Source of the DNA: a virus
Length of the DNA: 64,000 nucleotides
IMG/VR virus record: IMGVR_UViG_3300042566_002057
Span: 1-64,000 of that record
Strand: one strand, 5' to 3'
Position 1 is the first letter of the stretch. Every line of letters starts with the position of its first letter. Below are positions 14,449-15,178 of the stretch, piece by piece. The translations under genes and the position numbers were made by a program. The notes beneath the pieces are model-generated. The model had not been told where the DNA came from. It did not search any database and worked only from the letters and a program-made list of their open reading frames with translations.

Positions 14449-14526
14449 ATGAAGAATTTACTTAACATATCAGCATTTATAGCGAACGGCGCGGGGAGTG
14501 ACCGTAGTTGGCTGGTTGTTATGTAA
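14449..14526 (+). CDS. attenuator leader peptide 5, MKNLLNISAFIANGAGSDRSWLVVM (Ile-ATA/Ala/Gly)
   Basis: ATA TCA GCA TTT ATA GCG AAC GGC GCG GGG; TGGCTGG 14509-14515 pairs with CCAGTCA of the terminator. Confidence 0.85.
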   Translation: MKNLLNISAFIANGAGSDRSWLVVM

Positions 14527-14553
14527 ATTTCAGATATTGAAACTAACATACTT

Positions 14554-14582
14554 AACCCAGTCAGAAATGATTGGGTTTTTTT
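14554..14582 (+). terminator. attenuator terminator 5
   Basis: AACCCAGTCA-GAAA-TGATTGGGTT plus T-tract. Confidence 0.9.
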
Positions 14583-14586
14583 ATTT

Positions 14587-14667
14587 CGGCAAGTACCGTT
14601 GGAATCTTATACATTCTATACACGTAGCGGGAAGTTGAAAACGTGGGTTCGAATCCCACCTTGCCGA
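14587..14667 (+). tRNA. non-canonical tRNA-Ile(TAT)-like RNA lacking a normal D-arm
   Basis: CGGCAAG/CTTGCCG acceptor; TGGAAT-CTTATAC-ATTCTA arm; canonical T-arm. Confidence 0.6.
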
Positions 14668-14679
14668 CAAATGATACAA

Positions 14680-14753
14680 GCGGGTATCGTATAATGGTTT
14701 AATTACACCGGCCTTCCAAGTCGGTGATGTCGGTTCGATTCCGGTTACCCGCA
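14680..14753 (+). tRNA. tRNA-Gly(TCC)
   Basis: CCGGC-CTTCCAA-GTCGG. Confidence 0.9.
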
Positions 14754-14758
14754 CAAAT

Positions 14759-14834
14759 GGGCTAGCATGTTCCAAGGCTTCGGCGACTTACCCTTGCAAG
14801 GTAGGTGTGGTGGGTTCGATTCCCATCTGGTCCA
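14759..14834 (+). tRNA. tRNA-Ala(TGC)
   Basis: TTACC-CTTGCAA-GGTAG; G3-U70; irregular D-arm. Confidence 0.8.
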
Positions 14835-14855
14835 CAAAAAAAATAAATATGAGGA

Positions 14856-14981
14856 ATGAAAGTAGTAATTAAAGGCGAATTTAAATCAAGTAAAGTAAAT
14901 CTAAGAAATTCAGAAGAAATTAAATTAGATGTTTATTTAGAAAGACTAATTAAAAAGATTAAAAAGAGAATTAAAAAATAA
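14856..14981 (+). CDS. small basic hypothetical protein (41 aa) inside the tRNA cluster
   Basis: MKVVIKGEFKSSKVNLRNSEEIKLDVYLERLIKKIKKRIKK fills the tRNA spacer. Confidence 0.4.
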   Translation: MKVVIKGEFKSSKVNLRNSEEIKLDVYLERLIKKIKKRIKK

Positions 14982-14986
14982 AATAA

Positions 14987-15062
14987 GCGAGAGTAGCTCA
15001 GTTGGTAGAGCACCACCTTGCCAAGGTGGGGGTCGCGGGTTCGAATCCCGTCTCTCGCTCCA
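14987..15062 (+). tRNA. tRNA-Gly(GCC)
   Basis: CCACC-TTGCCAA-GGTGG; encoded TCCA end. Confidence 0.95.
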
Positions 15063-15104
15063 AAATGCCGGGTGATCCACCGTTGAATCACGGTGCCGGC
15101 TCCA

Positions 15105-15178
15105 GGGGGATTAGCTCATTTGGCTAGAGCGCTTGTCTGGCAGACAAGAGGTGACGAGTTCAATCCTCGTATCCTCCA
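15105..15178 (+). tRNA. tRNA-Ala(GGC)
   Basis: CTTGT-CTGGCAG-ACAAG; G3-U70. Confidence 0.92.

Follow-up and report, generated by a model that had tools for sequence, protein, structure and literature searches.

A putative leader-peptide attenuator ahead of an Ile/Gly/Ala tRNA operon in a metagenomic virus genome

The leader attenuators of enterobacteria include trpL, hisL and leuL, and they may be multivalent: thrL senses threonine and isoleucine, and ilvL senses isoleucine, valine and leucine. Attenuation also extends to synthetase genes, as in the pheM leader of Escherichia coli pheST. In bacilli, hisS paralogues are preceded by histidine leader peptides (PMC2965389). The tRNA genes of phages are commonly seen as constitutive cargo, there to tune codon usage or to make up for host tRNAs lost to destruction in the course of infection. 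Here we describe a locus in a 64,000-nucleotide (nt) stretch of viral DNA (positions 1 to 64,000 of IMG/VR record IMGVR_UViG_3300042566_002057, hereafter the window) in which a short leader open reading frame (ORF) starting at position 14449 and an intrinsic terminator stand ahead of a group of tRNA genes. The 14449 unit is, in all likelihood, a transcription attenuator of the ribosome-mediated (leader-peptide) kind, controlling entry into a phage tRNA operon. What appears to be new is that a known mechanism, with its function here predicted from sequence, controls tRNA genes, seems to resolve isoacceptors and is carried by a phage. In our literature search, no paper on leader-peptide or attenuation control of tRNA genes came up, and the word attenuation is absent from the survey of huge phages (Al-Shayeb et al. 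2020, PMC7162821).

The leader at 14449 and its alternative folds

The elements of the predicted switch are the following.

14420-14432, plus strand: promoter-like motif TTTATATATAC, with the ATG of the leader 17 nt further on
14449-14526, plus strand: leader ORF, ATG to TAA, 25 codons, without a Shine-Dalgarno sequence
14454-14474, plus strand: segment 1, the 5' strand of the anti-antiterminator, overlapping the first regulatory codons and pairing with 14511-14530
14467-14496, plus strand: regulatory codons ATA TCA GCA TTT ATA GCG AAC GGC GCG GGG, encoding ISAFIANGAG
14508-14532, plus strand: segment 2, holding TGGCTGG and the stop codon, partner of either segment 1 or segment 3
14538-14564, plus strand: segment 3, the 3' strand of the antiterminator, which includes the 5' arm of the terminator
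14554-14584, plus strand: intrinsic terminator, a hairpin of 10 base pairs (bp) at 14554-14577 with a T run to 14582, then ATTT

A sequence-only reading of this DNA had proposed an attenuator responding to Ile(ATA), Ala and Gly codons ahead of matching tRNAs, with the run ISAFIANGAG as its sensor. The run is indeed found upstream of the tRNAs, at 14467-14496 within the 25-codon ORF, and the attenuator as such is supported: its sequence-level features are complete and are seen again in the window's five other units, in four related genomes and in 24 distinct orthologues. Seven of the ten codons of the run specify isoleucine, alanine or glycine and are read by four of the five tRNAs behind the leader (P about 6e-4 for the best 10-codon window, uncorrected for the approximately 15 windows tried).

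As in a trp-type attenuator, three alternative helices can be drawn for the leader RNA, namely 1:2, 2:3 and 3:4. RNAfold of 14508-14564 gives an antiterminator of 21 bp (-16.2 kcal/mol) that encloses the stop codon, and it returns all three pairings from which an antiterminator around the stop codon had been predicted: TGGCTGG with CCAGTCA (14509-15 with 14557-63), TATGT with ACATA (14520-24 with 14546-50) and TTTCA with TGAAA (14528-32 with 14538-42). As the antiterminator uses the 5' arm of the terminator, it is mutually exclusive with the terminator hairpin (14554-14577, -13.9 kcal/mol). Helix 1:2 (14454-14474 with 14511-14530) had not been part of the sequence-only reading; it is present in both the minimum-energy and the centroid folds, and the fold of the entire leader has a z score of -5.7. 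The stop codon (14524-14526) lies inside segment 2.

Switching was modelled on an RNA that ends at the just-made terminator loop, with a ribosome footprint of 30 nt masked. Whichever codon between 14467 and 14494 occupies the A site, C14557 pairs with G14515, as in the antiterminator. With the ribosome at the stop codon, C14557 in the terminator arm is free. In the fold without a ribosome, helix 1:2 (-27.8 kcal/mol) captures segment 2 and the terminator forms.

We propose that transcription would start from the promoter-like motif at 14420 or arrive by read-through from the upstream Tyr/Glu unit; given this motif, the 14449 unit could fire alone, besides being reached by read-through. A ribosome slowed at the ATA, GCA/GCG, GGC or GGG codons (14467-14496) would cover segment 1, leaving segment 2 to pair with segment 3. 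The 5' arm of the terminator would thereby be sequestered, and the polymerase could run on into the genes for Ile(UAU), Gly(UCC), Ala(UGC), Gly(GCC) and Ala(GGC). A fast ribosome that reached the stop codon (14524) would occupy segment 2, so that the terminator would form and the tRNA genes would stay silent. Silence would also be expected if the leader was not translated, with segments 1 and 2 paired and the terminator at 14554-14577 formed. Since the tRNA output would relieve the stall, each unit would provide a negative-feedback, demand-driven supply of the isoacceptors it samples. We infer that the ORF at 14449-14526 is translated and that transcription and translation are coupled at this leader.

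Parallel units, relatives and orthologues

The window contains six leader units, each consisting of an ORF, a terminator and a tRNA cluster (starts at 6416, 7576, 13701, 14449, 19919 and 35310; units 1 to 6). Strong terminators on the plus strand stand 4-20 nt ahead of the tRNA clusters (6542, 7674, 13800, 14554, 20065 and 35428), and each is preceded by an ORF of 24-37 codons whose stop lies 22-33 nt upstream. The leaders and the clusters behind them are as follows.

Leader rich in His, Phe, Trp and Lys: tRNAs Phe, His, Phe, Trp and three Lys
Leader rich in Ser and Arg: tRNAs Arg and Ser
Leader rich in Tyr and Glu: tRNAs Tyr-like, Glu and Tyr
Leader rich in Ile, Ala and Gly: tRNAs of the 14449 unit
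Leader rich in Asn, Thr, Leu, Val, Ile and Arg: twelve tRNAs for those six amino acids
Leader rich in Gln, Pro and Asp (run QVNPQPQDQD): tRNAs Gln, Pro and Asp, twice

Among the 720 permutations, the one that joins each leader to its actual cluster scores uniquely best, with 65 cognate residues versus a mean of 30. The antiterminators were assessed by a fold-gain test, in which the 3' part of the ORF is paired with the 5' arm of the terminator, including its apical part, and compared with dinucleotide shuffles. The gain is significant in each of the five units other than 14449 (p <= 0.008), and the Fisher combination over all six gives 7e-9. This test replaced a cruder duplex test of the ORF end versus a truncated terminator arm, which was significant for units 1 and 5 only and gave p values of 0.15-0.36 for units 2, 3 and 6.

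The nearest public relatives of the window are the uncultured phage genomes LR745206 (634,780 bp) and LR756502 (642,428 bp). The tRNA regions of these and of two IMG/VR genomes (385 and 476 kb) were scanned for a terminator with a tRNA within 130 nt and a small ORF ending 5-50 nt upstream. The scan yields 6-7 units per related genome, and the true assignment is uniquely best in every one of them (1 of 5040, 720, 5040 and 720 permutations). A 205-codon gene followed by a terminator and a tRNA-Met (L047 of W01) was left out of the units, as its ORF is not small. The glutamine tRNAs provide a natural experiment on the match between leaders and tRNAs. In the window one leader serves Gln, Pro and Asp; in the relatives the Gln tRNAs are grouped apart behind a leader of their own, which has 16-17 codons, six or seven of them for Gln, and the Pro/Asp block retains a leader rich in Pro and Asp.

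The leaders also follow the isoacceptors behind them in their choice of synonymous codons. Isoleucine is encoded by ATA at 11 of 14 positions in leaders before Ile-UAU and by ATT at 8 of 9 before Ile-GAU (p 0.003); arginine is encoded by CGN at 11 of 13 positions before Arg-ACG and by AGA at 7 of 9 before Arg-UCU (p 0.007), both by Fisher tests that take no account of phylogeny. An amino-acid sensor would have no reason for such a match, which suggests that the supply of tRNA is sensed.

A variable-gap pattern search found 24 distinct orthologues of the 14449 unit in lake and marine metagenomes and viral contigs, which were aligned. The ORF is open in all 24 despite indels; it has 22-27 codons, 7-12 of them for Ile, Ala or Gly in varying order, and the indels within the run are multiples of three. 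After the run, a 1-nt indel shifts the C-terminal frame; the stop nonetheless falls within helix 2 in every orthologue (columns 68-84). TGGCTG is kept as nucleotides whichever frame reads it. In one lineage (L016, L024 and L025, metagenome contigs) the leader ends 4-5 codons early, with a TGA inside TGGCTGA; this lineage also has an insert of some 780 nt that separates the terminator from tRNA-Ile(UAU). From the frame changes over the conserved TGGCTG and the kept content of the run, it follows that constraint acts on the RNA in the 3' part of the leader and on the codons in the 5' part.

Pairing is also maintained in the alignment. The terminator is 95% paired, the antiterminator 86% (versus 16-43% in slid controls) and the core of helix 1:2 87% (versus 15-73%). 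The antiterminator shows compensatory swaps, CG/GC at columns 63:123 and UA/AU at 64:122, and in L035 and L036 we read from the alignment a shifted perfect pairing of 7 bp, ACTGGGT with ACCCAGT. Behind the terminators of the orthologues there is always an ATA reader, then tRNAs for Gly and Ala. As ATA reader, some have an Ile(UAU), be it canonical or unusual, and others a CAU tRNA, the latter being found in the cluster of those relatives that lack Ile(UAU) directly after the terminator. As its 5' half is nearly identical to that of a relative's TAT tRNA, this CAU tRNA is probably tRNA-Ile2, a reader of ATA.

Several candidates were discarded from the orthologue set. One (L010, G002, 432977) has the first 24 nt of the leader with two mismatches, and there the sequence belongs to an unrelated ORF of at least 66 codons with no tRNAs nearby; L015 is a chance match, and L012 and L014 have no in-frame ATG. 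The variable-gap leader pattern has no match in 185,579 species genomes, which thus give no clue to a host or prophage.

The cultured Cellulophaga phage phi17:2 (KT962247.1; L064, phi17:2_18) has the same leader design. An unannotated ORF of 22 codons (run QRLHLQELEQP) and a terminator precede tRNAs for Pro, Glu, Gln, His, Leu, Leu and Arg. Elsewhere, the hypothetical protein Phi17218_077 is followed by a hairpin with a T run, then by tRNAs for Ala, Ile, Gly, Met, Asp, Thr, Val, Arg, Met and Tyr; the terminator scan lists this hairpin on the minus strand only, and the plus-strand T run was read from the sequence. Three small ORFs within the tRNA arrays of this phage (approximately 2208-2331, 3134-3310 and 5075-5176) match the tRNAs behind them, and the first two have terminators; two of the three are annotated as hypothetical proteins, Phi17218_077 and Phi17218_078. 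Small hypothetical proteins within phage tRNA arrays, such as Phi17218_077, are probably leader peptides, and their annotation could be corrected to probable leaders.

The tRNA operon, its signals and its surroundings

The end of the terminator is separated from the first tRNA-like gene (14587) by 4 nt. The operon behind it contains the following features.

14587-14667, plus strand: tRNA-like RNA with anticodon UAU (14608-14610, reads ATA), non-canonical, D arm not recognisable
14680-14754, plus strand: tRNA-Gly(UCC) (ARAGORN; Rfam, 60 bits)
14759-14834, plus strand: Ala(UGC)-like RNA, non-canonical, with G3:U70 and the anticodon at 14795-14797
14856-14981, plus strand: basic, lysine-rich ORF of 41 codons, not part of the switch, ending 5 nt before tRNA-Gly(GCC)
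14987-15062, plus strand: tRNA-Gly(GCC) (ARAGORN; Rfam, 73 bits)
15105-15179, plus strand: tRNA-Ala(GGC) (ARAGORN; Rfam, 60 bits)
15180-15215, plus strand: AT-rich hairpin and T run ending the operon (RNAfold, -17.2 kcal/mol), followed by the next promoter-like motif (15213) and a gene

The five RNAs had been listed beforehand from the sequence. Gly(TCC), Gly(GCC) and Ala(GGC) are called by ARAGORN and Rfam; the TAT RNA and Ala(TGC) are present but non-canonical. The latter two (14587-14667 and 14759-14834) are called neither by ARAGORN nor by the Rfam model RF00005 at its gathering score and give only weak matches to models of transfer-messenger RNA (18 and 16 bits). An acceptor, an anticodon and a T arm are nevertheless seen in each of the two, and relatives show compensatory changes there. 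For the UAU-like RNA, the acceptor and anticodon stems are compensated in L009, L031, L032 and L018: the anticodon stem varies as GGAAU/AUUCU, GGUGU/ACACU and CCAAU/AUUGG, and the acceptor stems co-vary. In these sequences, five with that of the window, 25-34 nt lie between the anticodon and T arms, and no D arm could be assigned from them; other relatives have a canonical tRNA-Ile(UAU) in this place. The Ala(UGC)-like RNA aligns with the Ala(UGC) called by ARAGORN in L018 and L027, with the same unusual D region and compensatory changes in the stems.

The 41-codon ORF (14856-14981) is kept in at least five relatives (L018, L023, L027, L036 and L040) and has no Pfam family. The relatives also have a conserved ORF of about 55 codons at this locus, which the window lacks. 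The genes behind the terminator are tRNA genes and one 41-codon ORF; no gene for amino-acid biosynthesis or transport and no synthetase gene is among them.

The motif ahead of the leader belongs to a set of ten in the window with the form TTTA(A)TATATA[ACT] (6398, 14420, 15213, 18171, 19902 and 35292 on the plus strand; 5508, 30745, 40708 and 63980 on the minus strand). The copies nearly always lie 3-19 nt ahead of an ATG that opens either a leader or a long ORF (165-744 codons). The leaders carry the promoter-like motif of the phage genes, and three of them share the motif-to-ATG spacing of the genes too. At a distance of 17 nt ahead of the 14449-type leader, the motif is kept in four relatives, W01, W02, G001 and G002. 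It probably represents a phage promoter class with very short 5' leaders.

A different pattern, TTTG, about 20 nt and TAnnTTTG, precedes units 1, 3, 5 and 6 (6335-6372, 13653-13684, approximately 19850-19885 and approximately 35220-35255, plus strand); we take it to be the -33/-7 promoter form of Bacteroidota. Its copies ahead of units 1 and 5 are near-identical across about 50 nt. The missing Shine-Dalgarno sequences fit a Bacteroidota host. In the survey of huge phages, the Mahaphage clade takes in all genomes larger than 634 kb, with Bacteroidetes as the predicted hosts (Al-Shayeb et al. 2020, PMC7162821).

The window is AT-rich (G+C about 31%) and has at least 36 tRNA genes plus a GOLLD RNA (ARAGORN, Rfam). 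The GOLLD RNA is full-length (44297-44706, plus strand; RF02032, 298.9 bits) and is flanked by a tRNA-Met and two tRNA-like genes to which ARAGORN assigns two-base anticodons (43456-43542, 43732-43805 and 44720-44794). Its cluster is closed by a strong terminator (45009-45024), and no leader/terminator unit stands ahead of it. Six tRNAs are over-long at 84-127 nt (7228-7316, 7408-7534, 20111-20196, 20374-20463, 35760-35843 and 35850-35938). They are Lys, Ile, Asn, Gln, Pro and one unassigned, and the length is unusual for those amino acids. The extra nucleotides lie in the variable region, except in 7408-7534, where about 55 nt have been inserted behind the D arm.

The Tyr/Glu unit contains degenerate tRNA-like sequences: a Tyr(GUA)-like RNA whose D region is shortened (13849-13916), a truncated 5' half resembling tRNA-Glu (13919-13950) and a weak tRNA match (14189-14263, 24.8 bits) with the anticodon loop CACUAAG and possibly the anticodon CUA. 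Upstream of the promoter and leader of this unit lies a tRNA-Met(CAU) (13561-13634, plus strand), which has no attenuator of its own and is initiator-like by its C1:A72 mismatch. Just past the 14449 operon, a 217-residue ORF without a family (15815-16468, plus strand) adjoins a gene for a 533-residue protein (16496-18097, minus strand) with Eco57I and N6_Mtase domains (Pfam E values 3e-16 and 3e-12); the pair (15815-18097) may be a restriction-modification or methylase module.

Alternative explanations and known systems

Several observations weigh against an attenuator at 14449. Taken alone, its antiterminator is borderline versus dinucleotide shuffles (p 0.06 for the gain and 0.03 for the total energy), and the cruder duplex test gives p 0.08. 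The weight lies with the six parallel units and the orthologues. Ala(GGC) has no cognate codon in the leader, and three of the ten codons in the run (TCA, TTT and AAC) are non-cognate. Of the five RNAs behind the terminator, two are non-canonical and perhaps unable to decode. The leader ORF lacks a Shine-Dalgarno sequence, which is expected in a Bacteroidota host and is no proof of translation. The four related genomes share kinship and are thus not independent samples. Among the orthologues, the search pattern fixed TAACATATCA and GGCGCGGG, so that invariance there is a product of the search; the invariance of GGCGCGGG and AACATATCA, both demanded by the pattern, was dropped as evidence. The rare-codon bias of the orthologues (GCG 74% versus 6%, GGC 56% versus 3%) is likewise partly forced by the pattern. 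Helix 1:2 shows no covariation because its 5' strand was fixed by the pattern, and covariation rests on two pairs because the cores of the terminator and antiterminator are almost invariant. Finally, the switch could not work if the region is transcribed by a phage RNA polymerase that ignores intrinsic terminators.

The same machinery could respond to amino-acid starvation, with uncharged tRNA as the signal and tRNA output rising when the charging of Ile, Ala and Gly tRNAs falls. The architecture matches that of amino-acid attenuators, and a stalled ribosome is blind to whether a tRNA is missing or uncharged. We nevertheless consider this signal improbable, given that extra tRNA would not cure amino-acid starvation and that synonymous codon choice follows the encoded isoacceptor (ATA versus ATT, CGN versus AGA). 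Feedback on tRNA abundance is favoured, as judged from the sequence, even though the ribosome itself could not tell the two apart. A more remote proposal takes the hairpins for ordinary terminators, insulators or processing signals that separate tRNA transcription units, and the small ORFs for chance frames in AT-rich spacers. The missing Shine-Dalgarno sequence and the borderline antiterminator of the 14449 unit speak in its favour. It is very hard to reconcile with leader-cluster matches that are the uniquely best permutation in five genomes, with an ORF and stop position kept in 24 orthologues through indels and frame changes, with antiterminators significant in combination, or with a gap of 4 nt between terminator and tRNA, which leaves no space for a promoter.

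A ribosome-independent switch, in which the leader binds tRNA directly in the manner of a T-box or a protein stabilises one of the helices, has T-box logic in its favour, as a terminator and antiterminator beside tRNA-related codons would be expected there too. However, Rfam at E <= 10 gives no T-box, riboswitch or known leader within 13400-15300, only tRNAs and chance-level matches, and the leader is only about 135 nt long. Many cognate codons in one frame, which starts at a conserved ATG and closes with a stop in helix 2, are readable as such only by a ribosome, and we give this switch very little credence. Still less can be said for a functional micro-protein whose place before the tRNAs is incidental. 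Its N-terminal MKNLxNIS is conserved, in part forced by the search pattern; the middle of the peptide keeps composition and not order, over its C-terminal third the nucleotides are conserved while the frame used is one of two or three, and one lineage terminates 4-5 codons early, which together make such a function extremely improbable.

If the leader-peptide attenuator is real, the regulated product of the feedback would be the sensed molecule itself, and leader-peptide attenuation would extend from metabolism to the decoding machinery, with a resolution of single isoacceptors. The leaders would then point to the codons at which the phage anticipates limitation, and the timing of and reasons for a phage's need of its own tRNAs would become testable through read-through. 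We speculate, and no more than tentatively, that the six leaders jointly form an isoacceptor-resolved demand sensor, at once an inducible counter-defence and a tRNA homeostat, on a principle common to unrelated tRNA-rich phages. Each set of tRNAs would be freed once the matching host tRNAs are exhausted, for instance following host shut-off or cleavage by host anticodon nucleases.

The tRNA clusters of the window resemble those of T4, T5, KVP40 and huge phages (PMC7162821), arrays believed to suit the codon use of the phage or to stand in for the tRNAs of the host. With T-boxes the predicted switch has in common that tRNA status is read through codon-like triplets and coupled to the choice between terminator and antiterminator; in contrast, T-boxes bind uncharged tRNA without a ribosome and have a conserved fold, whereas the phage leader has an ORF and no T-box match. 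In the pheM and hisS attenuators, as predicted here, a leader peptide reads the codons of an amino acid and controls a gene of the translation apparatus. Their target is a synthetase that restores charging, for a single amino acid and in cellular genomes, while the target in the phage would be the tRNA itself.

A close likeness in design is to leaders of the trpL, hisL, leuL, thrL and ilvL type, which share with the 14449 unit the short ORF with clustered regulatory codons, the helices 1:2, 2:3 and 3:4, the intrinsic terminator, and a stop codon from whose position a ribosome ending translation would block the antiterminator; the sensing of several amino acids by one leader would be common to both. 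Unlike these enterobacterial attenuators, the phage unit would control tRNA genes and not biosynthetic enzymes, so that its product would directly relieve the stall. It is phage-encoded, has expression signals of a Bacteroidota or phage type without a Shine-Dalgarno sequence, and follows isoacceptors in its choice of codons, with about six copies of the design splitting the genetic code among them.

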